Source of the DNA: a virus
Taxonomy: Duplodnaviria; Caudoviricetes
DNA: 49,843 nt
IMG/VR virus record: IMGVR_UViG_3300032212_000017
Location: 1 to 49,843 of that record
Strand: one strand, 5' to 3'
Shown piece after piece: positions 4,151-30,287 of this stretch (position 1 is the stretch's first letter; the number at the start of each line of letters is the position of its first letter). The notes beneath the pieces were generated by a model. It was not told the DNA's origin. It saw only the letters and a list, made by a program, of their open reading frames with translations, and made no database searches. A program made the translations under genes and the position numbers.

Positions 4151-4332
4151 AGCTCTTCCATCAGGCCATGTACCTGTGTTAACTCTTTAATTAACATTTC
4201 AAGCTCAGCTTTGGTTAGGCTGGAGCTGAAGTAATAATCACAACACTCAGTTAAAGTAAGTGTTGTCTTATCCTTAGAAACATTGAAATCTACTACCGAG
4301 TCTTTCTCTAGTTTTTCAAGTATATTTTTCAT
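4147..4332 (-). CDS. Hypothetical protein
   Basis: 61-aa coupled ORF. Confidence 0.6.
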   Translation of the reverse strand: MKNILEKLEKDSVVDFNVSKDKTTLTLTECCDYYFSSSLTKAELEMLIKELTQVHGLMEEL

Positions 4333-5087
4333 AGTTTACTCGGTGTCAGCGTATTCGCTTTCGTCTGTTTAGAGCCGATATTACTTCTACCACGTAGAGG
4401 TGTACCGCAATCAGCACAAGAATATCTCTGGTACTGCATGGTCTTAGTTGTCTCAATCCCACGCTTATGTACGTGCTCTGAACCGCAATTAGAGCAAACA
4501 GGGCGTTCTGTGTCCATGAACAGTGCATGATTAGGATGATCTTTAATCCAAGGAAGCAGTGTCTTATACAGAGGTTCTAGTAGTTTGACATCCTGCTTGT
4601 TGTATCGTTCCATCTGCCTCCAAGCTTTATCATCGCCAGCCATGCACTGATTCCACAGCTCCATGCCGATGTGTTTTACCTTCGCACCTAAACCTAAAGC
4701 TTGCGCTACGTAGTCCAACTTATTGCTAGGGAACTTGAACCGCTTCCTGCATGTCTTTAGCAGATCAATCTGATGAAAAGGAGTAGGTACACCCATGTCA
4801 TTAATAGCGAACTCCTTGTTCAATGTAGGGATATCGAACTTAACACCATTGTAGTGGACAATTGCATCAGCCTCACTCATTAAGTCGAATATCTCCTTCA
4901 GCATCTCTTTCTCAGAGGATTGGTGAACTGAATTAAAGAAGACTTCTTTCTTACCATGCCATTTAGCTGCCCAACATAAGGTGTAACCAGGTTCTACTAT
5001 CTGGTTAATACCTACGTTCTGATTCCATAACCCCCAAGTGTAAACTTTATTAGGTGCTGTTTCTATATCTAAGTGTAAAATCTTCAT
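4329..5087 (-). CDS. RNase H-like (RNase_H_2/DEDD) 3'-5' exonuclease with C-terminal Zn ribbon
   Basis: LDIET, YNGVKFD, SNKLDY, YNKQDV, then CSNCGS...CADCG. Confidence 0.85.
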   Translation of the reverse strand: MKILHLDIETAPNKVYTWGLWNQNVGINQIVEPGYTLCWAAKWHGKKEVFFNSVHQSSEKEMLKEIFDLMSEADAIVHYNGVKFDIPTLNKEFAINDMGVPTPFHQIDLLKTCRKRFKFPSNKLDYVAQALGLGAKVKHIGMELWNQCMAGDDKAWRQMERYNKQDVKLLEPLYKTLLPWIKDHPNHALFMDTERPVCSNCGSEHVHKRGIETTKTMQYQRYSCADCGTPLRGRSNIGSKQTKANTLTPSKL

Positions 5088-5536
5088 AGTATTCCTAGCT
5101 CCATACAGTGTCTAGCGTAACACGCTGCTAAATTTGTAGTAAATCTTTTTGAGTGTCTGTGGTAGAATGACGCCCTCCATTTATTAGAGGTTTCATCCTT
5201 ATGTACACCCACAACAATATTATTTGTTGATTTGTTTTGTTGATTCTCAAAATGAGAACACTTGACAAGATTTACGTACCTATTGTTGAGTTTATCTCTA
5301 TCTAAATGATCAACATGTTCAGGTGGAAATTCTCCCTCCATGTATAAAAATACCAATCTATGTAAACTATAGGTCTTTCTTGATATTGATACTTTTAAAT
5401 ATCCTTCATCATTTACCCATCCAACTTCATCTCCTGCTTTAGTATTACCTAGAGACTTTCTGCGTGTGAATATACCAGTAGAGGGAGAATAATTCATTAT
5501 ATATTTCAAATAATCTTGTGTCAGCCTCTTCTTCAT
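5084..5536 (-). CDS. HNH homing endonuclease
   Basis: HRLVF...VDHLDRDKLNNRYVNL...NQQN with an AP2-like C-terminus (VGVH...KWRA). Confidence 0.88.
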   Translation of the reverse strand: MKKRLTQDYLKYIMNYSPSTGIFTRRKSLGNTKAGDEVGWVNDEGYLKVSISRKTYSLHRLVFLYMEGEFPPEHVDHLDRDKLNNRYVNLVKCSHFENQQNKSTNNIVVGVHKDETSNKWRASFYHRHSKRFTTNLAACYARHCMELGIL

Positions 5537-5772
5537 AAAAGTCCTCTTCTTCTTAATTCAGCTGCAACAGCCACGTTAAAATCTTTAACAGGTACTTTCC
5601 GTTTCTCTAGTTGTACACTGATGTACAGACTAGCACTCTGGACAGCTTGTTGATCGCTGTACTTACATCTCTTTAGCTTCTGTACCATATCTACGTAATC
5701 CTCGGCTAAGTCACGGTACATGTGTTCAGCGAGTTGTATAACCTTATCGTTCACACCATACCTTTGATTCAA
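5533..5772 (-). CDS. Hypothetical protein (true start probably the GTG of VNDKVIQ)
   Basis: Coupled ORF on the coding strand. Confidence 0.55.
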   Translation of the reverse strand: MNQRYGVNDKVIQLAEHMYRDLAEDYVDMVQKLKRCKYSDQQAVQSASLYISVQLEKRKVPVKDFNVAVAAELRRRGLL

Positions 5773-5907
5773 TCAAGAATTGTTTCAGCAACTCGCCGTC
5801 CTCTTTCCTAGTCGGATTGGCTGAAGACAGCCAGAGGGTTGCGATGGTCTGTAAATCAATCAAGAACATACAGGTGTCGTGGATTTGGTCGTTCATACGG
5901 TCGTCCA

Positions 5908-6147
5908 TTACTGAACCCTACTCTTGTATTCCTTTTTAGTCATACTTTCGATAGTACAAGGGATGGGTTTATCCTCTCTGTCATACATCGCTACTTTTTC
6001 ATACCCCCACGAATACAATACACCGAACTCACAAGCGTAACTGAATCTACCGTAAACCTTACCGTCTACAACAGGTGCTTTTATAACCTTAGCGTCAGTG
6101 TTACACGCAGGCAACAATAAGGTCAATACTAAAATTAAATACTTCAT
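5908..6147 (-). CDS. Small predicted lipoprotein
   Basis: MKYLILVLTLLLPAC: signal peptide with lipobox. Confidence 0.7.
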   Translation of the reverse strand: MKYLILVLTLLLPACNTDAKVIKAPVVDGKVYGRFSYACEFGVLYSWGYEKVAMYDREDKPIPCTIESMTKKEYKSRVQ

Positions 6148-6551
6148 AACTTTTCCTTTAAAGAATTGATAAGGTCTTTGTTCTTCTGCTTACCGCGTTC
6201 TGTTTTACATTTCCGCATACGCTTACGAATTTTACTGATTTGCTTCTCTATGTCTGACTTGTGGTTCGGGTGGATTGGTTGATCTCTCCAGTCTGTTTCC
6301 CAGTACGATACCAAGTTTTGTAGATAGAGTAATACATCGTTCGAGCGACTACGCTTGGCCCACGATTTAATGCGTCCTTCTGCATGATTACAACTCCTAT
6401 GTAAGACCCGACGACACCTTCCCGTAAAATGATCGTGGTCGAGGGTACTTTCGTGTACCTCAATTGTCTGCTGACAGAGGGGGCAAATACCACCCTGCTT
6501 TTTGAGTAACTGCTCACGATAAGCTTTAACCTCTTTTGGTTTTAGTCTCAT
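6144..6551 (-). CDS. Endonuclease VII family protein (resolvase-like)
   Basis: QGGICPLC...LDHDH.TGRCRRVLHRSCN.AEG. Confidence 0.85.
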   Translation of the reverse strand: MRLKPKEVKAYREQLLKKQGGICPLCQQTIEVHESTLDHDHFTGRCRRVLHRSCNHAEGRIKSWAKRSRSNDVLLYLQNLVSYWETDWRDQPIHPNHKSDIEKQISKIRKRMRKCKTERGKQKNKDLINSLKEKL

Positions 6552-7309
6552 ACCTCAGTGCGTCCAATTGCAAGGAGAACGTAATTCACCTCGTACTCCT
6601 TAGAATATCCCTGCTCCGCGTACAAATCTTTCACTGCCTGTAACCTCTCTGCTGCTGTGTCGTACTGAAGGAGGAAGTCTCTGGCCTTCACATGACCGTA
6701 ACCAGACTTGGCGTACTCACCTGACTTCAGTTTAGGGCGTACTGGGCTTAAAATATTGTCAGCTGAATCTCCGCAAGTTAGCTGGTAAGCTAAGAAGTTA
6801 CCCGCATCTTCTTCGTTCACCCAAAAGATATTACCTGCGTGGTGTCCTCGCCATTTATAATACCAACCACTCACGGTTTGAAAATCTTTATCTAATGTTG
6901 CAATGATAGGTGCACTGGCATGTAAGCCATCATCTAAAGCTAATATCATTTGTTTTGCTAACATATCATCCGCCTCATATCCATCAGGTGCAATCTCTGC
7001 ATCCCAGTGCTGAATCAGGTAATCTTTAGTTGCTTGGTAATGCGGTGGTTTCTCTTTATCCTTCCGATTAGCCTTGTAATTCTCAGCAATCTCGTACCTA
7101 AAATTAGTCGGTGATGATAGAATACACCTCATCGTTTCACACTGAGTTTTTTCCTGCATATCAAGCAACATCTCTTTGACTGAGTGCAGGATGAAATTAA
7201 CAGGTTCGTCAGGATCACGGCTGAGGTACAGCATTAGGTCGGAATCTACAAGCAACACACGTCCTGGAATAACCGTTCTTTGCTCTCGGATAGGGAGGGT
7301 TAATGTCAT
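6548..7309 (-). CDS. 5'-3' exonuclease (T7 gp6/FEN-like)
   Basis: VDSD, NFR, YKANR, EADD, DKD and GDSADNI motifs. Start placed at the ATG at 7309 (ATGA overlap). Confidence 0.88.
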   Translation of the reverse strand: MTLTLPIREQRTVIPGRVLLVDSDLMLYLSRDPDEPVNFILHSVKEMLLDMQEKTQCETMRCILSSPTNFRYEIAENYKANRKDKEKPPHYQATKDYLIQHWDAEIAPDGYEADDMLAKQMILALDDGLHASAPIIATLDKDFQTVSGWYYKWRGHHAGNIFWVNEEDAGNFLAYQLTCGDSADNILSPVRPKLKSGEYAKSGYGHVKARDFLLQYDTAAERLQAVKDLYAEQGYSKEYEVNYVLLAIGRTEV

Positions 7310-7494
7310 AACGTCCATACCCAATACAGACCAGTTGAAACAAAGCCTAACAAAGATACAATAAACAGTATTAGAAAACCCCATGCTATAAATACAGGCC
7401 ACTCATGGCTTTCTGTCGCTTGAATAATTTTACCTACTAGGGCTATTATAATACCGAATGTTATTAGTAGTTTCAATTCAATATCCATAATCAA
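7306..7494 (-). CDS. Small two-TM membrane protein
   Basis: Two hydrophobic segments; coupled to the exonuclease gene. Confidence 0.6.
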   Translation of the reverse strand: MIMDIELKLLITFGIIIALVGKIIQATESHEWPVFIAWGFLILFIVSLLGFVSTGLYWVWTL

Positions 7495-7663
7495 CTCGCA
7501 ATCAAATCAAAATTATTCAAAGTAAGCACCATCGCCATCCTGCGGGTCTCACCCTGCTTAAGTTGGAAGTGCAGCTCACCGATGATATCTTCAAAGTTAG
7601 GATGATCGAATATCAGATCCATCATCAGGTGGATGTACTCTTTATCTGTTGTCTCTTCGCGAT

Positions 7664-7936
7664 TCATGACTCACCCACCGTACTCTCTAAAAACATCACC
7701 AACTCCTTCTTCTTCTCGTACTCATAACCCGAGTCACGCCACGCAAGTGCTAACTCGGTGATACGTTCAGCTTTAGCACAATCTTTAATCAACATCTGAT
7801 CCAGAGCGCCTTGTACGTACTCAACAGACTTGTGTTGTACTACACAGTCACCGTCTACGATAAGCCACCACCGTTGAGATTCAGGGTCTCTTTTAATGTG
7901 TGGTTTAGTCATCATATCCACCGTATCCACCTTCAT
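7664..7936 (-). CDS. Hypothetical protein
   Basis: Coding-strand ORF; start uncertain. Confidence 0.55.
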   Translation of the reverse strand: MKVDTVDMMTKPHIKRDPESQRWWLIVDGDCVVQHKSVEYVQGALDQMLIKDCAKAERITELALAWRDSGYEYEKKKELVMFLESTVGES

Positions 7937-8204
7937 CTCGGTAATCTATATACGTAACAATAGGATCGTGTCCTGATTCTAATTTAAAATCATGTATTAC
8001 TTTGATTACAGCAGGATCATCTGTCACTAACTCAATATCAGTTTCTTCAAGTTCACCACTAATATCTGAGTGCTTCCCTAGCACTTCTCCGAAATAAATA
8101 GTTTTTCCGATTGCCTCGGCTACATCTACAGGGTCTGCTAAAAAGACACCTTCAAGGTCGCCCATACGTCCACAATCCCAATAAAATTTATATAAAGCTT
8201 TCAT
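7905..8204 (-). CDS. Conserved phage hypothetical protein (WDCGRMG...FGEVLGKHS)
   Basis: Recognisable conserved phage motif; ATG at 8204 with AGGAG RBS. Confidence 0.75.
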   Translation of the reverse strand: MKALYKFYWDCGRMGDLEGVFLADPVDVAEAIGKTIYFGEVLGKHSDISGELEETDIELVTDDPAVIKVIHDFKLESGHDPIVTYIDYRDEGGYGGYDD

Positions 8205-8300
8205 TCGTTCTCTCCTACGCCGTCCCTGGCGCTTGTTCACCACTTACGCGGCATGTTCCATAGGTTCAAAGGTGGTAGATCAGGTTCTGCCCATGTTATA

Positions 8301-9008
8301 TCAAAAAGGCGCGTCTGAATCATCAAACTCAGGCTCACCAGCTGACGCTGCATCTGCTGTAGCTTCCATCGCTACCTGATCTGAGACTAACTGCTCAAGA
8401 CGTGAACCACTGAAGTTAGTTGCTGACTTGATCTTCTCTTGCACCCAGTCATGCAGTGAGCTGAAGATATCTTGATCAGGTTCATCAAAATCGAACACAA
8501 CAGGGGCTTTACTCGGCTGTGCAACGTCCATACCTGCTACCATCGGACCGACTGAAACTACCTTGGCTTTACCACCCGATGTTGAACCAATCTGCACAAG
8601 ACACGCTTCACCCAGTACAGCACTGATACTCTCAGCTCCAGGTTTTAAAGCTTGGACTAACTTGAACAGTGCGCCTTTAGAGGTGACTGTGTAATCTTTA
8701 CTCTGCCAGCGTGGTAAGTCCTCACCTTTGATGTTAATAGTCTCGGTAGGGAACTCGTAAGTTACTTGTACCTGTGGTTGAATGACTGGCATACCTGTGA
8801 CTTCAGAAGTCTTCTTAGCGAACCCATCATCACCTTTAACGGCTGTGCCGTCACCAGCTTCTACATAGTACTGAGGGACTGACTGACCGTTAATCCATGC
8901 TGTATTGTGCTGTTCGCCTAGATCAATGATCTGTACAATACGTGCAGGAAAAGATCCATCGGGGATTCGTCCGTTGTCTTGTTTAGTTTGTTGCATGTTT
9001 AAGCTCAT
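8301..9008 (-). CDS. Putative single-stranded DNA-binding protein
   Basis: ARIVQIIDLG OB-like N-terminus, acidic tail ending EFDDSDAPF, and position between polymerase and exonuclease. Confidence 0.7.
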   Translation of the reverse strand: MSLNMQQTKQDNGRIPDGSFPARIVQIIDLGEQHNTAWINGQSVPQYYVEAGDGTAVKGDDGFAKKTSEVTGMPVIQPQVQVTYEFPTETINIKGEDLPRWQSKDYTVTSKGALFKLVQALKPGAESISAVLGEACLVQIGSTSGGKAKVVSVGPMVAGMDVAQPSKAPVVFDFDEPDQDIFSSLHDWVQEKIKSATNFSGSRLEQLVSDQVAMEATADAASAGEPEFDDSDAPF

Positions 9009-9286
9009 TACTTCTCCTCCAAGTCTTCAAAACTACCTTCTACGAATATTACCCATTCTGGGGACAGGACATTAGTGCTACTAGGGATCTGAATATTACC
9101 CTTCGAAGATACCCTAAAAACATCTAACAATGTACCACTGTAGTCATTTATATCATAAGGCAGAGGTAAGGTTGGCAATGCAGTCAACCCTCTCTTAACG
9201 TACACACGGACTAGCTTAGGTTTATCCAGCTCCTGTACGAATTGCTGTAATTCTTCGATCTTCTGAAGTGCTTGTTGTTTGTTCAT
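9008..9286 (-). CDS. Hypothetical protein
   Basis: 92-aa coupled ORF. Confidence 0.6.
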   Translation of the reverse strand: MNKQQALQKIEELQQFVQELDKPKLVRVYVKRGLTALPTLPLPYDINDYSGTLLDVFRVSSKGNIQIPSSTNVLSPEWVIFVEGSFEDLEEK

Positions 9287-9483
9287 TTAGTTTCCTCTTG
9301 GTTTGTTGTCTCGTTTAGTAATTCTTGTCTGTGGTCGCCTTCGCTTAGCAGCTCGGCTCGAATAGTTTGTAAACTGTTGATTACGAAGTCTAGTTGTTCC
9401 ATATCATCTACCTCTAAAGTAGAGGTAGTTGTCTCACTATATTCTATTCTATTAGCACCTGTCAATACTGTGTAGTCCATCAA
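9283..9483 (-). CDS. Hypothetical protein
   Basis: 66-aa ORF with GAGG RBS. Confidence 0.55.
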   Translation of the reverse strand: MMDYTVLTGANRIEYSETTTSTLEVDDMEQLDFVINSLQTIRAELLSEGDHRQELLNETTNQEETK

Positions 9484-9529
9484 TCACCTCTCTTTAACTA
9501 TTTGACCAACTTTGTTCTGATAAGTTCAA

Positions 9530-10660
9530 TCAGTGACACTCCAACCAGCTGTTCCCAGTAGACCACTCGCCATCTAAAGGTACGTTCATCTTAAAATACT
9601 CTCCTGCTCTAATAATACTTTTGACACCGAGTTCTCCAATAAGTTCCGCATCTTTTTCAAAACATTGAAATAAGGCTTCGTCATGGTATGCCACTACTCT
9701 TTGTGCGGGTATTCCACGCTGTTTAATCCACTTATCCATGAACACTAAACTGAGGTTCATAATCTTCTGTCCTGCTGATTGACACTTAGCATTAAAAACA
9801 GAGTGCTTGGCTCTAGTGACGATCTTAGAACCATCTATTGTACAGATGTATTTCTTTTGGTTCTTCTCGAACTCCTGTTCTGTTTCTTCTATAGCTGAAC
9901 GTAAAGCCCAGTTCTGTTCCCAGTACGCATTCCACCACACCTCTGCCTGTTTTAACGGTACGCCTAAAGTACGTGCTAGTGTTGGTGGTTGGCAGTTGTA
10001 CTGCAAAGCAAAGGTTCCAGGCTTTATATCCTGTCGCTCATCTTTCTGCACATCCTGCATAGCTTTACCTAACCATACACTTGCGTTCTCTGTGTGCTCA
10101 TCCCAATCAGGATCGAGGAGTTTATCAGCGTATTCTCCGTTATCGAACGGGTACGTGTAATGTCCCTTCACCCTAGCCTCTAAAGAACTCGCATCATAAC
10201 CTACTAATACCTTACCTTCAGGTGCTTGGAACAGTGATCTGAACTCAGCCCCGAGTAAAGAAGTGCTTCGAGGGATATTAGCCACAGTCCTGTGCTTCTC
10301 TCTGTGAGTATTAGTCAATCCTGAGCTGGCAGCTGGTAATCTACCATCTAAAGCAAGGCGCGGATGATTCAGCCAACCAGTACCTTTATCTTCATTCAAT
10401 AAAACAGAGCGTCTGTTGCGTAGAGATAACCAAATAATAATCGGTTTAACTAATTGAACTTTATCACCTAACCGTTCTAAGTTAAGGCAGATTTGGCCGT
10501 TCTCATGGAATTTAGGACTGGTCTTAACTAGCTGTCCACGATCATCTCTAACAGGCTTCCCGTTCTTTTTCTGTACGTTCCAGTACAGCGGCTTCCACGA
10601 AATAACTTCTTTATCAGGTATTTTGACTTTGATATCATTTTTCATTCCATACCAAGGCAT
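9530..10660 (-). CDS. Family A DNA polymerase, C-terminal polymerase fragment (part 3)
   Basis: Motif A GYDASSLEAR, motif B RQDIKPGTFALQY, motif C YHDE, and ANIPR. It has its own GGAGG RBS. Confidence 0.92.
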   Translation of the reverse strand: MPWYGMKNDIKVKIPDKEVISWKPLYWNVQKKNGKPVRDDRGQLVKTSPKFHENGQICLNLERLGDKVQLVKPIIIWLSLRNRRSVLLNEDKGTGWLNHPRLALDGRLPAASSGLTNTHREKHRTVANIPRSTSLLGAEFRSLFQAPEGKVLVGYDASSLEARVKGHYTYPFDNGEYADKLLDPDWDEHTENASVWLGKAMQDVQKDERQDIKPGTFALQYNCQPPTLARTLGVPLKQAEVWWNAYWEQNWALRSAIEETEQEFEKNQKKYICTIDGSKIVTRAKHSVFNAKCQSAGQKIMNLSLVFMDKWIKQRGIPAQRVVAYHDEALFQCFEKDAELIGELGVKSIIRAGEYFKMNVPLDGEWSTGNSWLECH

Positions 10661-11213
10661 AACTCTCCTCCATATATTTTAAAACTTGTTTTATCTCATC
10701 TATGGTTGCATTATTTTTGATCGCGTTTGCTCTGTGGCTGATAATCCTAACGTTTCCTTTGACATAACCCAAGCTTGGGATTATGCGATCTAGGCTCGGC
10801 GAATCATCTGTTCTTTGTCCGTCTCCTTGTTTTAGCTTAACGCCAAATACCGGGCAAAACGTAGGCATACATAGATCATCTACAGTTAAATCAAACACAA
10901 CCCCTTTCTTTTTAGCCCTTTTTCTAGCGTCGTATAACATGTACTGGAGTGGGTTATTTTTTCGCCTTATCTTGGTCAATTCTCTGTCTCTTTCCTTTAC
11001 TTTTTCTAACCCATATTTCTGTACTCTTCTTGCTCTTGCTTTTTTATTTTCTTCTGTGCTTGGCTTAAAATAATCAGGGTCTTCTTTCCGCTTCTGCTCC
11101 GCCCACCTCCTCATATACTCTTTGCGTTCTGGGGTACGATTTCTTTCCCTTTGGTATTTCCTCCTAGCTGCTATCTTCTCTTCCTCAGTTTTATATTTCT
11201 TATGTGCTGGCAT
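10635..11213 (-). CDS. Free-standing HNH-type homing endonuclease inserted in the DNA polymerase gene
   Basis: Basic N-terminus, then CPVFG...SPSLDRIIPSLGYVKGNVRIISHRAN. The ATG at 11213 overlaps the stop of pol part 2. Confidence 0.88.
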   Translation of the reverse strand: MPAHKKYKTEEEKIAARRKYQRERNRTPERKEYMRRWAEQKRKEDPDYFKPSTEENKKARARRVQKYGLEKVKERDRELTKIRRKNNPLQYMLYDARKRAKKKGVVFDLTVDDLCMPTFCPVFGVKLKQGDGQRTDDSPSLDRIIPSLGYVKGNVRIISHRANAIKNNATIDEIKQVLKYMEESYALVWNEK

Positions 11214-11683
11214 TATTTGTCCTCCCAAAATACTTCTTCATATTGACCTATATACTCGTCTTTAACAGACCCTTTCAACAGCCACTCTTTTATTTGTTTC
11301 TGGTCCTTTAATTCCATCGGTAATGAATCAATGATAGGTTCGTGGAATGGGAGTTCAACTTTTATTCCATTCTTAATACCATAATATGAATCCCAATCTT
11401 CTTGGGCTATTTCATCAAACCATTTCTCACAAGCAGCACTCGGCTCCCCATTCTTCTTGAATTGAAGCTTAGGTGGAGTCCATAAATTCAGTTCACCCTT
11501 TTTAAGCGGCCTACTCGGTAGTTTAGGCTCAACCTCCTGTCTGATACGCTCCATCTCTGCATCGATATGAATAACCAGCTTTTTAGCGGCTTCTTGATCG
11601 AAACAGACACCGGCTCTTTCCTGACGGCACATAAGGTCGTAGGTTTTCTGCGCCAGCTTTACGTGGAAGGGTAGGTTAATCAT
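11213..11683 (-). CDS. Family A DNA polymerase, middle fragment (part 2, thumb region)
   Basis: RQERAGVCFD, PKLQFKKNG and QIKEWLL, typical of the segment that follows the exo domain in T7/LUZ24-like PolA. Confidence 0.8.
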   Translation of the reverse strand: MINLPFHVKLAQKTYDLMCRQERAGVCFDQEAAKKLVIHIDAEMERIRQEVEPKLPSRPLKKGELNLWTPPKLQFKKNGEPSAACEKWFDEIAQEDWDSYYGIKNGIKVELPFHEPIIDSLPMELKDQKQIKEWLLKGSVKDEYIGQYEEVFWEDK

Positions 11684-12003
11684 AGACTAACATCTATATC
11701 TGCATCAGGATGCTCTTTACAGGCCTGTAATACATCAGCCAACCAATTGAAAAAATCATCAAATGTTCCCCATCCATTTTCTGCACTGTATTTATCAAAT
11801 CCGACTGGATCGCTTGTTAGGATTCTCAAGCCAGCCTCTAAGAACGGTATGATATCCTTTGCCTTGTGCGCCCCTATAATTTCAGGGTGCCATAGGGGGT
11901 AATACACTCCTGTTTGCACGGCCATTTCTATTAGGTTGTGAGTAATGTTACTATCGAACACGCCTACACATCTCTCTTCTACTAGACTAAAATCTAAGCT
12001 CAT
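11680..12003 (-). CDS. Conserved phage hypothetical protein (NITHNL...NGWG) lying between pol parts 1 and 2
   Basis: Recognisable small phage protein motifs; unrelated to polymerase. Confidence 0.75.
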   Translation of the reverse strand: MSLDFSLVEERCVGVFDSNITHNLIEMAVQTGVYYPLWHPEIIGAHKAKDIIPFLEAGLRILTSDPVGFDKYSAENGWGTFDDFFNWLADVLQACKEHPDADIDVSL

Positions 12004-12494
12004 ACCTCAATCTCCAACTTCCCACACAGGTACTCAAATACCTGCTCTGTTAAGACAACATCTGCCTCGCATCGTTCAACGTAAACTTCTATCGGCTCAT
12101 CCTTCCAGCTTTCAACAACAGGCTTCACACCATTCAGACGCTCTGCGTAAGCGGCTAATGAATGCCCTCCTGGAAGATCAGGGAACCAGCTTCTTGACAT
12201 GGCTAAAGTATCAATTAACTGCACGTTCTTCGCCGTCCCGTCCATTAAAGTGATTGAATCCGGTAAAACGGAGTACCCTTTGATAACCTGCATCTTAATA
12301 AGGGCTTCGAAATCATAACCGAATCCGTTATGTGTAACTACGGTATCTTGATCTTGTAGTACCTCTTCAAAGAAGTACGTGCAACTACCTGTGTGTGTAT
12401 GTGCTTGTCGATCAGTACCTTTAAAACTCCAACAATGAATTTTAGTCAACTCATCTAGAAGTCCATCAAATTCCCCGTCACAAAAGTAGATCAT
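12000..12494 (-). CDS. DNA polymerase 3'-5' exonuclease domain (part 1)
   Basis: ExoI CDGEFDGL, ExoII HNGFGYD, DTL..S, GHSL, ExoIII RCEADV. Confidence 0.88.
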   Translation of the reverse strand: MIYFCDGEFDGLLDELTKIHCWSFKGTDRQAHTHTGSCTYFFEEVLQDQDTVVTHNGFGYDFEALIKMQVIKGYSVLPDSITLMDGTAKNVQLIDTLAMSRSWFPDLPGGHSLAAYAERLNGVKPVVESWKDEPIEVYVERCEADVVLTEQVFEYLCGKLEIEV

Positions 12495-22654: not shown

Positions 22655-22714
22655 TCTCTTAATCCTCTATTAACGCATCGCTTATCAGCTCTGCTGTTCG
22701 TTGTGTATGGTTAC

Positions 22715-22742
22715 ATAATACACTGATTCACTGATAATGCAA
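22715..22742 (-). promoter_or_regulatory. Putative sigma70 promoter for the left (early) arm
   Basis: TTGCAT-N16-TATTAT, about 60 nt upstream of the first leftward gene. Confidence 0.5.
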
Positions 22743-22888
22743 TAGCTGAACTATACCGTTCATCCGGTATACTGTATAAATACAGCTGAGCTACAGGTAA
22801 ATCTAGCTGTCATAACAGTAAAGAATCAATAACTTACAGCTGAATATAACCGCTTGTCTGAAATACTGTAAATAACCTTAAATAAATT

Positions 22889-22915
22889 GAACTAAATTGA
22901 ATATAAATGGTCTAA
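22889..22915 (+). promoter_or_regulatory. Putative sigmaE/ECF-type promoter 1
   Basis: GAACTA-N16-TCTAA preceded by AAATAAATT, the same upstream string as at 24783. Confidence 0.6.
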
Positions 22916-22999
22916 TAAGTAGTCTTATTGTTCAAGGACAGACGATAAGACGCTTACCCTTATATAGTAAAGGACGAGTCACGTCAGAGACGAGGACTC

Positions 23000-23537
23000 T
23001 TAGCTGATAATATATTAAAGTCAAGATCAAAGTCAAAACATGGATAGAGTGATAAATACTAAATGTTGTTATCATATTCTTATAGACAGAGTGAAGAACT
23101 GATAGTTCAAAGTATTATAGTTCATACAGCGTAACACCATGATAGTTATAGTCTATAACATACAGTATAATGATTGATTTAGCTAATATAATCAGATAGT
23201 TATGATTAAGATAGAATACATAGATAATGATTGATGATAACTAGTATTCAAGTAATTGATTGAATAGTTAGTAAATGATAGGTGTAATATACCCTAGTAA
23301 TGACCCATAAACATTACTTATCCATATAATACACGGGATAGTACCGACTACAGATTACAGCTATAAGCCCTGGTTATGACAGCTATACACTCGGTTAATC
23401 AAGGATATAAGCAGATTATTATATAAGGGGTATGGGGGAATGTTTGAGTAGAAGATAAATTGGGGTACCCACCAGCATAAATTTTAACAGTTTCTAGAAG
23501 TTTTTGTTTTTAGTTCGTTTAACCTACGAGGCACTGT
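23000..23537. other. AT-rich non-coding region, likely genome termini and/or origin
   Basis: No ORF of 60 aa or more, repeated (G/T/A)ATAGTT, G-rich GGGGTATGGGGG and GGGGTACCC, and position between the divergent arms. Confidence 0.5.
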
Positions 23538-23750
23538 ATGGACGAAGATGAATACGATACACAGTACGAGTACGACCTAGACTCTTACCACCTCCAGACA
23601 GCTCTTGAATTAGCTCTCGGAACTGATGAGGTTCTAAGTAACGAGGATGTACCTCCTGAGATCAGGATACGTACAGTCCTTCAAGCAACTAACATCTTCC
23701 TGAAGTGTATGACTGAGGAAGGGTATATCGAAGGAGCATTGGGACAATGA
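23538..23750 (+). CDS. Acidic hypothetical protein
   Basis: 70 aa, GAGG RBS, first gene of the right arm. Confidence 0.65.
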   Translation: MDEDEYDTQYEYDLDSYHLQTALELALGTDEVLSNEDVPPEIRIRTVLQATNIFLKCMTEEGYIEGALGQ

Positions 23751-23992
23751 TTTATATGTGGTCAGAAGCTATACCTGTATTCTGTAAACAATACAAGTAC
23801 GGACAGAGAGTACATGGTTTAAGACAGAATTATATTCGTCCTGATACTCTGTACATCTTCGATTGGGAGTTTGATACCGTAGACCCTGAATATACAAGGA
23901 AGTTGTTGTACAAAGCTTATATTCCAGCTTTAAGGAATAGTACAGGACTAATTATACAAGACTTAGATTACAATCTCTCGGAATACGAATGA
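23747..23992 (+). CDS. Mini-protein homologous to the terminase ATPase Walker B region
   Basis: GQRVHGLRQNYIRPDTLYIFDWEFD aligns ungapped to TerL GQKIRGRKWRGKRPDLIVIDDLEND, followed by KL...K..IP.L...G.I. Confidence 0.7.
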   Translation: MIYMWSEAIPVFCKQYKYGQRVHGLRQNYIRPDTLYIFDWEFDTVDPEYTRKLLYKAYIPALRNSTGLIIQDLDYNLSEYE

Positions 23993-24408
23993 CCACCATC
24001 GCATACAAGGATGGGGTTATAGCAGTAGACTCTCGGTGCACCAGAGATAATACAATCGTTTCAGACAGCTATAACAAAATCAAGGTAGTACAAGACGTAC
24101 AGTTCATCCTGTGCGGTGTACTGAGTGAAGAGCAAGCCTTTATTTCAGCTTACTTCGGAGAAGAGCCACAGGACGAGATAGAGATGTCAGCTCTGGTTGT
24201 ACATCAGAACAGGGTGTACTCAGTAGTCTTCGACCAGGGGAAGATTTACAAGCTGGATATCACCGGTTCAACAGATGCGATGGGTTCAGGTGAAGACCAT
24301 GCTTTAACAGCTATGGATCTTGGACTGAGTGCTAAGGAGGCTGTCCGAATGGCAGCTAAGAGAGACACAGGGACAGGTGGACGGATTAGAGTTCTGGAGG
24401 TTAAATGA
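23989..24408 (+). CDS. Ntn-hydrolase (HslV/proteasome beta-like) protein
   Basis: N-terminal MTTIA...DSRCT, plus AMGSG and D..TGG motifs. Confidence 0.8.
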   Translation: MTTIAYKDGVIAVDSRCTRDNTIVSDSYNKIKVVQDVQFILCGVLSEEQAFISAYFGEEPQDEIEMSALVVHQNRVYSVVFDQGKIYKLDITGSTDAMGSGEDHALTAMDLGLSAKEAVRMAAKRDTGTGGRIRVLEVK

Positions 24409-24534
24409 GTAAACTACGCAGAGAGCCACAAAAAAAGAGCAGTATCCCGCACGAGCTAGAGCAACTACGGTGGGACCTAGCGTTTAGCAAAGACCCTGAG
24501 AAGAAAGCCAAGTTACTGAAGGAGATCGAAGAGT

Positions 24535-24756
24535 ATGAGCAAAGAGCTGAAAAGTTATCTAAATAGCTGGTTAAAACTCAGCTTAGGTACAGATACTGAA
24601 GTGACTGATCAGGACACGTACTGGAACAGGCATGGTGGGTCATACATAACTCCTAGCCGCACTGAATGGACTATAGGTAACCAAACACTTGATGGGCGTA
24701 AGGTAGTAGGGTACGGGTTCTTTGGAGAGCCTATTTTTGGGATGGAATTGCCTTAA
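24535..24756 (+). CDS. Hypothetical protein
   Basis: 73-aa ORF. Confidence 0.55.
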   Translation: MSKELKSYLNSWLKLSLGTDTEVTDQDTYWNRHGGSYITPSRTEWTIGNQTLDGRKVVGYGFFGEPIFGMELP

Positions 24757-24791
24757 AACATACCGCTCGTCGGAAACATTGAAAATAAATT

Positions 24792-24818
24792 GAACTTTTT
24801 TGCTTTTGTGTTGTCAAA
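24792..24818 (+). promoter_or_regulatory. Putative sigmaE/ECF-type promoter 2
   Basis: GAACTT-N16-TCAAA, matching the RpoE consensus, upstream of the packaging/structural operon. Confidence 0.65.
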
Positions 24819-24823
24819 TAGGG

Positions 24824-25205
24824 AAAGGAAGTACAAGTAATCAATTAGTTGCTTGAATACTAAGATGGGTTTAAGGTTTCAGTAAGAAAACGATAAGATA
24901 CTTCACACTGTTGTAAAGGTTCCTTTTAACTTGTAGGCCCACATCGAATAGGTACATGGTTATCTACCTCCCCTCGCTATTGCGTTTTTATGGGTTAAAG
25001 ATAACCTTTTCTAAAAGGGACGAATAAATCTTATAATAGTCCTTCTTTTACTCTCACGCCAAGAAGAATATCAGTCAGTTTCCGTATCGAGGCTTAAGGC
25101 GCACCAGAGAGTTCTTTATTCTCTCCCTCTCAGGAGGTGGTCTAGGAAATGTCTACCTTAGACAGTACGCAAGGATGATATCATTTCAGCTACCTAGGAG
25201 GTAGT
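24824..25205 (+). ncRNA. Candidate structured leader or ncRNA
   Basis: About 380 nt without an ORF, with at least seven successive or nested stems found by eye. Confidence 0.45.
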
Positions 25206-25412: not shown

Positions 25413-26153
25413 ATGGCTAAAATAAGAGCTAAGAAAGTACAAGCCGCTGAACAGGCCGCAATCAAGGCAAAGCGCCAGAAAGAGAAGGAAGAGGCTGAGG
25501 CGCAAGGCTTAGTATGGACACCTCCTAAAATAGGTGGTCAGTTCAAAGATGATGATATCCAATCGTTTCTAAAGCATACAAAAGAGGTCATGGAAGTCCT
25601 TGAGCATGTACAAGATATCCAGATCACACACCCTTCGTTCTATGTAACTAACAAGAACATCAAGACAGCTGATAAGTTCTTAGCTGTTGCAGCTTACCTT
25701 GTTTTCGGTAATTCAAGACTTGCTTCTAAGTTCATGGGTGGCAGGGTAAAACCAGGAACTATCAGGAAGTGGAAACACGACAACACTTGGTATCCTGAAG
25801 TTGAGCAAGCGATCAAGAAGTCCCAAGGTTGGAAGTGGGACGCTAAAGCAACCAGTATCATAGATAAAGCCTCAGACGCGATACTAGAGCGTTTAGAGAA
25901 AGGTGATGAGGTTATTACAGCTAAGGGTGAAACCCTACACAGAGCTGTGAGTGCTAAGGATGCAGCTAGTGTCCTGACACAGACCTTTAACACCAGAGCA
26001 TTACAGCGCGGTGATCCGACTTCTCGCTCAGAGAAGAGTGCAACATCAGATGACCGTTTAAAGAAACTAGAACAAGCTTTCCGTGATATGGGTGCTCAGG
26101 CAAAACCTATCGAAGGAGAGGTTGTGATTGAAAAGGATACAAAAGATGCCTAG
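25413..26153 (+). CDS. Terminase small subunit (putative)
   Basis: HTH-like KPGTIRKWK..W, then ERLEKGD and RG.PTS; lies upstream of TerL. Confidence 0.7.
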   Translation: MAKIRAKKVQAAEQAAIKAKRQKEKEEAEAQGLVWTPPKIGGQFKDDDIQSFLKHTKEVMEVLEHVQDIQITHPSFYVTNKNIKTADKFLAVAAYLVFGNSRLASKFMGGRVKPGTIRKWKHDNTWYPEVEQAIKKSQGWKWDAKATSIIDKASDAILERLEKGDEVITAKGETLHRAVSAKDAASVLTQTFNTRALQRGDPTSRSEKSATSDDRLKKLEQAFRDMGAQAKPIEGEVVIEKDTKDA

Positions 26154-26340: not shown

Positions 26341-27798
26341 ATGTTAGATAGAGCACTAATCGAGGGATTCAGTACCTCAGTGCTTTCTAAGCGATACGAT
26401 AACCCCTTACCTACCCCTGAGTTCCACAGAGAACTTTGGGAGCTTTGTACATCAGATGCTAAGAAAGTAGCGATCATTGCGCCACGTGGACACGCAAAAT
26501 CAACATCAGTGACACATGCGTACACCTTAGCGAATGTTCTGTTCAAGCAAAGAAGATACGTGATAATCATCTCTGATACAGAAGAACAGGCTGTAGAGTT
26601 CTTAGGTGATATCAGAGCCGAAGTTCGTGAGAACGAAGATATTAAGCCAGGGACAGGACTGTTTGGAATCTCACGAATACTTAAAGATGCTGAAACGAAT
26701 TTCATCTGCGAGTTCGAGGATGGTTCGCAATTCCGTATCATGGCTAAAGGAGCTGGACAAAAAATACGGGGCCGTAAGTGGCGTGGCAAGCGCCCTGATC
26801 TTATTGTTATTGATGATCTTGAAAACGATGAGTTAGTTGAGAATCAGGACCGAAGGGAGAAATTACGTTCTTGGTTCATGAAGTCAGTTATCCCATCACT
26901 CTCTAAAGACGGTATTATCAGATACGTTGGGACAATCCTGCACTTAGATGCACTACTAGAGCGTATTTCACATAACTCTGAGTGGTTATCCCGTAGGTAC
27001 AGAGCACACAAAGGTTTTAACGACTTCACTGATATACTCTGGCCTGAATTACATACTGAACAGTCTTTACGGGCTATCCGAGAGGATTACAAAGCTCAGG
27101 GTATGCCAGAAGGATACAGTTGCGAGTACCTGAATGACCCTGTCGCTGTTGAAGACCGCTTATTCAGAGATCAAGACTTTCTTGAGATGCAGCCAGAGGA
27201 CTTCAATAAGTCGATGGTGTATTACGCAGCAGCGGATTTTGCTATCTCACAGAAAGAAAGAGCTGATAATACAGTTATGGTTGTCGGTGCAATGGATGAA
27301 AACGGTGTTCTTTATATTGTAGATAGAGTGAAAGGACGTATTGACTCTGAACAGATCATCGAAGATATGATTAACATACAGAAACGGTACGATCCTGAGA
27401 TATTCTTAGTTGAATCAGAGAAGATTGATAAAGCAATCGGCCCTTTCCTAAGAAAGAGCATGATTGAGCAGAACACCTATATTAACCTACACCCTGAGAC
27501 ACCTACAAAAGATAAAATAGCGCGTGCTCAGAGTATCGCAGCTAGAATGAAACAAGGCGCTATTCGTTTCCATAAAGAGAACGATTGGTACGAAGATTTT
27601 TACAGTAACTTAGCAGTTGTGACCCGCTCTGGCGTAAAAGGAGCACACGACGATGACCTGGATGCATTCGCATGGCTAGGTTTAGCTATTGATAAGTTCT
27701 GGAACGCTCCAACTTTCGCTGAAATTGATCAAGAAGAGTACGAAGATGAGATGTTTGAATACATGGATCTTGGTGCTTCTGAAATCACAGGATACTAA
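26341..27798 (+). CDS. terL: Terminase large subunit
   Basis: Walker A APRGHAKST, Walker B LIVIDDLE, coupling motif VGT, nuclease ADFA and HDDDLDA. Confidence 0.95.
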   Translation: MLDRALIEGFSTSVLSKRYDNPLPTPEFHRELWELCTSDAKKVAIIAPRGHAKSTSVTHAYTLANVLFKQRRYVIIISDTEEQAVEFLGDIRAEVRENEDIKPGTGLFGISRILKDAETNFICEFEDGSQFRIMAKGAGQKIRGRKWRGKRPDLIVIDDLENDELVENQDRREKLRSWFMKSVIPSLSKDGIIRYVGTILHLDALLERISHNSEWLSRRYRAHKGFNDFTDILWPELHTEQSLRAIREDYKAQGMPEGYSCEYLNDPVAVEDRLFRDQDFLEMQPEDFNKSMVYYAAADFAISQKERADNTVMVVGAMDENGVLYIVDRVKGRIDSEQIIEDMINIQKRYDPEIFLVESEKIDKAIGPFLRKSMIEQNTYINLHPETPTKDKIARAQSIAARMKQGAIRFHKENDWYEDFYSNLAVVTRSGVKGAHDDDLDAFAWLGLAIDKFWNAPTFAEIDQEEYEDEMFEYMDLGASEITGY

Positions 27799-29747: not shown

Positions 29748-29964
29748 GGAATTATTAACAGAACAGGTGTTTAAAGAGTGGATAGACCACCCTGTAACCG
29801 AGTACTGTAAACTGAACCTTGAGATTAAACTACAAGCGCGTGAAGATTTCTTAAAACAAGCAGCGTACATCAACGAAGAGAAAGGTCTTATCCAAGCAGC
29901 AGAAGCAAGAGGTTTAATCCTTGCTTACAAAGATATGCTAGATATCAGTTGGGAGGATGAATGA
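29704..29964 (+). CDS. Hypothetical protein
   Basis: GTG start with AGGAGG RBS; W..HPVT motif seen after portal genes in such phages. Confidence 0.65.
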   Translation: MEQVEQKLQKLEQLEELLTEQVFKEWIDHPVTEYCKLNLEIKLQAREDFLKQAAYINEEKGLIQAAEARGLILAYKDMLDISWEDE

Positions 29965-30287
29965 TTAAAGGTAAGCCAGCAGGACACAGGGTTCTGATAC
30001 AACCTGATAAGGTTGAAGAGACAGATGAGTTATACAAACGTGCTGCGGAAGCAGGAATCGATTTGTCTCACACACAAGAGAAAGAGCGCGAAGATGCAGC
30101 TCAAACAATAGGCACTATCTTACAAATAGGTGATACAGCTTGGAAAGATTACAAGTGTGATCCTTGGGCTAAGGTTGGTGATAGAGTAGCATACGGACGT
30201 TACTCAGGAAAAGTAATCTGTGATCCAGACTCAGGTGAAGAGCTTTGGATTATTAACGATGATGACGTTCAGTACGTCTTTGAATAG
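29961..30287 (+). CDS. groES: GroES-like co-chaperonin
   Basis: KPAGHRVLI, VGDRVAYGRYSG, IINDDDV. Confidence 0.85.
   Translation: MIKGKPAGHRVLIQPDKVEETDELYKRAAEAGIDLSHTQEKEREDAAQTIGTILQIGDTAWKDYKCDPWAKVGDRVAYGRYSGKVICDPDSGEELWIINDDDVQYVFE

Follow-up and report, generated by a model that had tools for sequence, protein, structure and literature searches.

A stand-alone fragment of the terminase ATPase core in a phage genome, a possible decoy for terminase-sensing defence

The stretch of DNA analysed here (hereafter the window) corresponds to an entire virus record. It is 49,843 bases long, carries a 184-bp terminal repeat and occurs in one sequencing run, labelled microbial mat metagenome, that may be its source. 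It is organized as two diverging arms: a minus-strand left arm that carries ribonucleotide reductase, pieces of a DNA polymerase, a primase/helicase and several HNH genes, and a plus-strand right arm encoding the terminase, a portal of the SU10 type, and capsid and ejection proteins. The arms are separated by an AT-rich gap of about 870 bp (22660-23530), in which a short segment at 22901-23109 is similar to the nearest relative, a sister phage (L001), and in which promoter-like sites score no better than in shuffled sequence; promoter and terminator scans gave shuffle-level scores only. Where the arm toward terL begins, a variable slot holds an accessory gene, here called the mini gene, for an 81-residue protein (P0001, the mini-protein). 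The features on which the discussion draws are the following.

23538-23750, plus strand: orf70, the conserved left flank of the slot (74% identity in the sister phage)
23730-23736, plus strand: Shine-Dalgarno-like GAAGGAG inside the 3' end of orf70, with the ATG 10 nt downstream
23732-24419, plus strand: exchangeable slot of 688 bp containing the mini gene and an HslV-like gene
23747-23992, plus strand: intact mini-terminase ORF (P0001, 81 aa), member of a four-protein family (alignment A2)
23801-23875, plus strand: mini-protein residues 19-43, ungapped match to TerL 139-163 (G..G-L..RPD and the Walker B strand)
23894-23956, plus strand: mini-protein residues 50-70, predicted helix and strand, like the TerL post-Walker-B helix (K..W..a.lP.L) and the next strand
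23989-24408, plus strand: HslV-family peptidase-like gene sharing the slot (phrog_1040, E 6e-39)
24405-24566, plus strand: orf53, the conserved right flank (63% identity in the sister phage)
25413-26153, plus strand: 246-aa gene upstream of terL, putative small terminase by position only
26341-27798, plus strand: large terminase TerL, 485 aa (phrog_38, E 6e-83; Terminase_6C)
26755-26919, plus strand: TerL residues 139-193, homologous to the mini-protein

ATGA overlaps join the mini gene to orf70 on one side and to the HslV-like gene on the other. The initial annotation had described an intact ORF with a ribosome-binding site and such overlaps on both sides, and the ORF at 23747-23992, the GAAGGAG and both overlaps are all confirmed. 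Codon use is ordinary (codon adaptation 0.72, compared with 0.71 for TerL) and the GC content is 35%, against 41.6% for the window. The mini gene, the putative terS and terL share one orientation, with the mini gene upstream of the other two. The 246-aa gene stands upstream of terL in relatives as well; family searches with it returned no significant match, and we infer a small terminase from its position alone.

The slot is exchanged in the sister phage, whose TerL is 71% and whose 246-aa upstream gene is 78% identical to those of the window. The sister keeps the order orf70, orf53, orf73 (in part), orf67, the 246-aa gene, orf66 and terL, with an unrelated 59-aa ORF in place of the mini gene and the HslV-like gene; the swap is directly visible on a contig from the sequencing run that contains the window, where 196 unrelated bases stand in place of the 688. 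Across the whole L001 record the profile of the mini-protein family described below matches the sister's TerL only. The HslV-like gene is no guide to the mini gene elsewhere: among its homologs with an upstream ORF, the mini gene occupied that place in 0 of 74. Relatives of the HslV-like gene are encoded in 319 viral stretches, at about 50% identity or less. The sister record also carries tRNA-Pro, -Leu and -Val (L001:5803-6059); ARAGORN found no tRNA in the window, where the corresponding region (24760-25200) keeps short stretches of 80-91% similarity (24762-24818 and 24947-25010); further contigs of the run match 24779-24820 too.

The initial annotation had noted a gap-free match of 10 identities in 25 residues between the mini-protein and the TerL of the same phage. 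Recounting gave the same figure for residues 19-43 against TerL 139-163 (36 of 75 nucleotides identical), and BLASTP extended the match to TerL 139-193 (18/56, E 1e-4 for the single pair). Similarity to terL at the DNA level is confined to this codon-aligned core. The pairwise score was reached by 19 of 20000 shuffles, and when small ORFs were compared with the hallmark proteins of the window (209 pairs) the mini/TerL pair ranked first (1 of 300 shuffles), with nothing convincing among the other small ORFs, the best of which gave 3 of 300. The single pair is nevertheless weak and proves nothing by itself, because 10 of the 146 small ORFs in the window score equally well against some other ORF (two of the ten being the terminal-repeat pair). 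The homology becomes convincing only because a family of homologs supports it.

This family was assembled by phmmer over 1.84 billion representatives, followed by a profile built from P0001 and P0123. The phmmer search returned two non-self matches: P0123 (60 aa, E 7e-5) and P0122 (E 1e-7), a 587-aa repeat protein that was dropped as spurious. The two-sequence profile then added P0124 (81 aa) and P0125 (76 aa). The source contigs measure 49,171 (P0123), 1,010 (P0124) and 6,304 bases (P0125), and identity to P0001 is 42-44% for P0123, 35% for P0124 and 29% for P0125; since P0123 and P0124 closely resemble one another, the four members amount to about three independent lineages. The three stand-alone homologs (60-81 aa) share the pattern G-x4-GL-x5-RPDT-x6-E and a later Leu, and eleven columns are invariant in all four members (M1, W5, G19, G24, L25, R31, P32, D33, T34, E41 and L62). 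Two features are the family's own: a conserved N-terminus, M-[IV]-[FY]-[IM]-W-[ST]-[DE], without colinearity to TerL, and an invariant Thr after RPD where 93% of TerL sequences have Leu. Lengths and C-termini differ between members.

The family is rare, at four proteins. Searching related phages for conserved short homologs had been proposed as a check, and its outcome is divided: three intact homologs exist among the protein representatives, and none stands alone in 89 TerL-related loci. Whole virus records, 8 and then 40 more, likewise yielded no stand-alone member, but many of them are fragments and TerL itself was missed in some, so that members may have escaped notice; in the 40 further records all 19 profile matches lie in frames of 288-526 aa at terL loci. 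Viral, metagenome and genome scans for the loci of P0123, P0124 and P0125 recovered none, the metagenome scan returning only the window's own contig, and motif matches (1 viral and 58 in genomes) looked like chance. The sequencing run contained no variant of the mini ORF. Searches of P0001 against Pfam, PHROGs and PDB sequences gave nothing and the Atlas no usable match; an Atlas feature search with P0125 gave 30 unnamed clusters, the best three of them viral, 66-81 aa long and scoring 0.90-0.92, which serve as leads only.

It is at the profile level that the relationship to the terminase core is clearest. Aligned by hhalign with 90 TerL sequences, the family gave a probability of 93.2 (E 3e-7) over 48 columns, covering TerL 138-190; the initial annotation had suggested both that the mini-protein is a stand-alone relative of the TerL Walker B core and that a profile match to terminase ATPases should be sought, and at the level of the family both are borne out. 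In the reverse direction, an HMM of the TerL core (114 sequences, with the window's TerL left out) gave the four members 9.0-13.7 bits, a score that none of 5000 shuffles reached for any member, and put the mini ORF ahead of every other non-TerL segment of the 778 taken from the window. Searched with the family profile, 16,580 six-frame segments placed terminases directly below the mini ORF itself (own TerL, E 6.7e-5), and with P0001 removed from the profile TerL segments again came first after the mini ORF (E 0.0015). A profile of the three foreign members placed the window's TerL first and the sister's second of the 114 terminases scored (118 given), a preference that points to an origin from this clade's terL. 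Weak agreement comes from a tblastn of P0125 against 50,697 phage records, whose top match was a terminase (E 5). In 400 bacterial genomes (E<=0.01) there was no stand-alone member, and the two matches were a Mu-like TerL and a non-terminase with KRPDAVII...IAIEAERT. Taken together, homology to the TerL core and maintenance of the gene are well supported, and we hold both with high confidence.

What the family keeps and what it has lost can be read against the phrog_38-type TerL ATPase, of which PhiV-1 gp19 is a solved relative (8dgc/9o4e). Shared with it are the RG-x-K-x-x-G-K-RPD motif region, the Walker B strand, the Glu at +2 from the Asp pair (E161 in TerL, present in 120/120 TerL and 4/4 members), the helix that follows and, in three members, the P-x-L; the invariant G24, L25, R31, P32, D33 and E41 fall on conserved TerL columns, while the family has His or Val in place of the Arg in the RG motif of TerL. 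Set against a TerL of 485 aa, the 81-aa mini-protein has a new N-terminus and lacks the RNase H-like nuclease, the GT coupling motif and Walker A. All four members are without the Walker A sequence, which reads APRGHAKS in this clade. The Walker B acidic pair, DD in 120/120 TerL, reads FD, TE, TD and TQ, so that the first Asp is replaced in every member (F, T, T, T). The GT motif, invariant as G197/T198 in TerL, is absent from the family, and Terminase_6C matches TerL 297-445 only and nothing in P0001. The absence of Walker A and nuclease and the Phe in place of the first Walker B Asp, which the initial annotation had reported for the mini-protein, were thus found again. Because all of these elements are lost, the four members are predicted from their sequences to be non-enzymes that neither bind nor hydrolyze ATP.

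Structure prediction added little. AlphaFold2 models of P0001, from the single sequence and then with the four-row alignment, had pLDDT of 41 and 40 and are uninformative, and these low-confidence models place a helix at residues 47-63. The Atlas model of P0125 is better (pLDDT 0.69) and has no named structural match above the bar. Derivation of the N-terminal hexapeptide from TerL 230-236 (z ~4) or 73-79 (z ~3) was considered and rejected, a single Trp driving the match.

Large terminases set off bacterial immunity almost universally (Avs1-3, Upx), yet they are too essential for phages to give up. The ATPase domain of the terminase alone activates EcAvs2; it is bound in a large pocket where an ATP acts as a bridge, and E1444 and E1462 of EcAvs2 form salt bridges to Arg154 of the PhiV-1 terminase (PMC13601566). 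In the same source the Avs2 interface is large and ATP-bridged, with contacts to Walker A, and a second Avs2 structure likewise depends on Walker A and ATP contacts (10.64898/2026.08.25.746987). For Upx, modelling has the receptor thread the core strands b1, b4, b5 and b6, which are disengaged and bound through beta-augmentation (PMC13601566). Small phage proteins can trigger these sensors too: Ksap1, at 74 aa a small sheet with helices, binds and activates Avs2 (PMC11564622), as do Ksap2 and T4 vs.8 activate it (PMC13601566). PMC13601566 treats as open both the ways in which phages escape terminase sensors and the reason for their carrying small terminase-like proteins, Ksap1 and vs.8 among them.

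Against this background the best single reading of the family, if a tentative one, is that the mini-protein may be a terminase mimic that occupies an Avs2- or Upx-type sensor without fully triggering it. On this reading a partial duplication of terL in this clade would have given rise to the mini gene; its product, made together with TerL or ahead of it, would bind the sensor; and the fragment would fill part of the pocket without bringing Walker A, ATP or the nuclease helix, so that the bound sensor would stay inactive. That a minimal copy of the ATPase core (four strands and one helix, taken from the clade's own terL) blocks Avs2- or Upx-type activation, as a self-derived PAMP decoy, is a proposal we regard as somewhat doubtful. 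The residues retained are compatible with sensor contact. In an alignment to 8dgc_E, PhiV-1 Arg154 corresponds to TerL R151 and to R31 of the mini-protein, invariant in 4/4 members; an Arg occupies this position in 120/120 TerL, and since it is structurally conserved there, its retention need not reflect sensor binding. For Trp179 of PhiV-1, which is another residue contacted by EcAvs2, the family offers no clear equivalent. The strands modelled as bound by Upx appear to include those kept in the mini-protein, which cannot supply the Walker A and ATP contacts of the Avs2 interface.

One premise of the initial annotation, that a broken Walker B makes the protein non-activating, is not supported. 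Terminases in which one Walker B Asp and one nuclease Asp were changed to Ala (PMC13601566, supplement file 2) still activate SeAvs3 in 4/4 cases, EcAvs2 in 3/3 with an activating wild type and SeUpx in 4/5, whereas activation of KpAvs2 fell in 3/4 (PMC13601566). Because Asp mutants still trigger sensors, a non-activating protein does not follow from a broken Walker B, and activation by Ksap1, Ksap2 and vs.8 counts against a decoy in the same way. Co-folding of an Avs2 region (residues 760-1405 of the EcAvs2 ortholog of genome G273) with P0125 scored 0.01 against a mark of 0.32, the fold of the partner being uncertain, and so speaks neither for nor against binding.

The terminase fragment may instead have been co-opted as a small alpha/beta scaffold with a role outside terminase sensing, for example inhibition of another host ATPase or defence protein, in which case being recognised by Avs2 would only be a cost to the phage, an idea already put forward for Ksap1, Ksap2 and vs.8. 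The family's private N-terminus and its invariant Thr after RPD fit such a role, as does the suggestion of Evans et al. that proteins of this kind may be anti-defence proteins that Avs2 learned to recognise (PMC13601566), and the best PDB profile matches, although non-significant (E 0.2-1.3), are Walker B regions of ABC ATPases. Yet most invariant family columns coincide with conserved TerL columns and the foreign members score best on this clade's TerL, which is what would be expected if terminase likeness is what selection keeps; we consider the scaffold unlikely on balance. That same preference for the clade's TerL, together with the shared orientation upstream of the putative terS and terL, could also speak for a part in the packaging motor, dominant-negative or regulatory, in which the mini-protein would bind TerL, TerS or portal and either time the phage's own packaging or poison the motor of a co-infecting relative. 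Such a relative is at hand, as the sister co-occurs in the same sequencing run, and its TerL, about 60% identical in the ATPase half and 86% in the nuclease half, leaves room for self/non-self discrimination. The sister nevertheless has no mini gene despite its closely similar upstream gene and TerL, so the gene is not needed for packaging, and the role as a packaging regulator raised in the initial annotation is weakened to that extent. The retained segment (core sheet plus one helix) is also not known to be a ring-assembly element, and a part in the motor seems distinctly improbable.

Two further accounts deny the mini ORF a selected function or a terminase origin. A decaying, functionless remnant of an old terL duplication would explain why both structure predictions have pLDDT of about 40 and why members vary from 60 to 81 aa with different C-termini. 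It sits poorly with four intact members that, at 29-42% identity, share a novel start and the eleven invariant columns, with the absence of terL DNA similarity outside the codon-aligned core and with the confidence of the P0125 model; the family, the shared start, the Shine-Dalgarno sequence and the two ATGA overlaps support the earlier view of a maintained gene rather than debris, and decay is accordingly very unlikely. Convergence or chance, by which a short G..GL..GKRPD motif would have arisen in, for example, a PD-(D/E)XK nuclease-like fold, is the least probable account. In its favour, each member on its own scores low (9-14 bits), P0001 matches no terminase model of Pfam or PHROGs, and one of the two bacterial-genome matches is the non-terminase already mentioned. 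The match, however, extends over 48 columns and takes in the P-x-L and the helix downstream, the profile picks terminases among 16580 segments, and inspection of alignment A2 revealed no conserved (D/E)xK on the strand after the PD strand.

Returning to the mini-protein as a candidate terminase mimic, stand-alone terminase-like proteins are already known and the family differs from each of them. T4 vs.8 is likewise stand-alone, lineage-restricted and homologous to the terminase ATPase of its own phage, but it keeps Walker A and B, is modelled with a bridging ATP and is toxic with EcAvs2 (PMC13601566); the mini family, an internal fragment with neither Walker motif intact, is set apart from it by description. 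Ksap1 (74 aa) and Ksap2 are also small and lineage-restricted; their own fold is a terminase-like central sheet of 4-6 strands with flanking helices (PMC11564622, PMC13601566). As described in these sources, the Ksap proteins resemble no known protein in sequence, and their activation of Avs2 is proven; by description they are distinct from the mini family, in which descent from terminase is visible in sequence. An anti-Avs role possibly shared with the mini-protein is held by ORF55 and ORF83 of phage DruSM1, annotated as DNA ligase and DprA/Smf-like, which in the available text are no terminase mimics (10.1101/2025.06.06.658234). No terminase-fragment decoy is described in the literature searched, a set that excludes most subscription papers, nor in the available text of EVADES and PMC13581612. 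What is new here, as judged from sequence, is an internal, Walker-A-less terminase fragment whose descent from the clade's own terL is visible. The family thereby offers four natural minimal terminase fragments, traceable by sequence, that could map the smallest terminase element visible to a sensor. If the decoy reading is true, phages have turned the molecular pattern that betrays them into a shield, which we have not found described for bacterial NLR-like sensors.

Several observations lie beside this argument. Compared with P0003 and P0004, its two closest relatives, the window's TerL is 59-64% identical in the ATPase half outside the core, 61-80% at residues 131-200 and 84-86% in the nuclease half; L001:7974-9440 and P0004 have the same length and the same 71% identity to it. 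The lower identity of the ATPase half suggests that the domain read by sensors has been exchanged or is under diversifying pressure. An HNH-like gene, identified by sequence, lies directly before terL in the sister (L001:7424-8005) and not in the window, and homing could explain the divergent 5' half of terL. Two Avs2-like genes of about 1,420 aa stand 13 kb apart on one contig (L246 and L248, G071:C100), both under the family cut-off. In the left arm of the window (minus strand, 4329-12494) the DNA polymerase is split over ORFs at 4329-5087, 9530-10660, 11213-11683 and 12000-12494. An endonuclease gene at 10635-11228 lies between two of these ORFs, and an intron or a homing element may be the cause. 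The ribonucleotide reductase (minus strand, 405-2268) likewise occupies two ORFs, 1474-2268 and 405-1274, whose 200-bp gap is possibly an intron. In the right arm, a GroES-like gene (29961-30287; phrog_3188, E 8e-9) lies between the portal and the capsid block.
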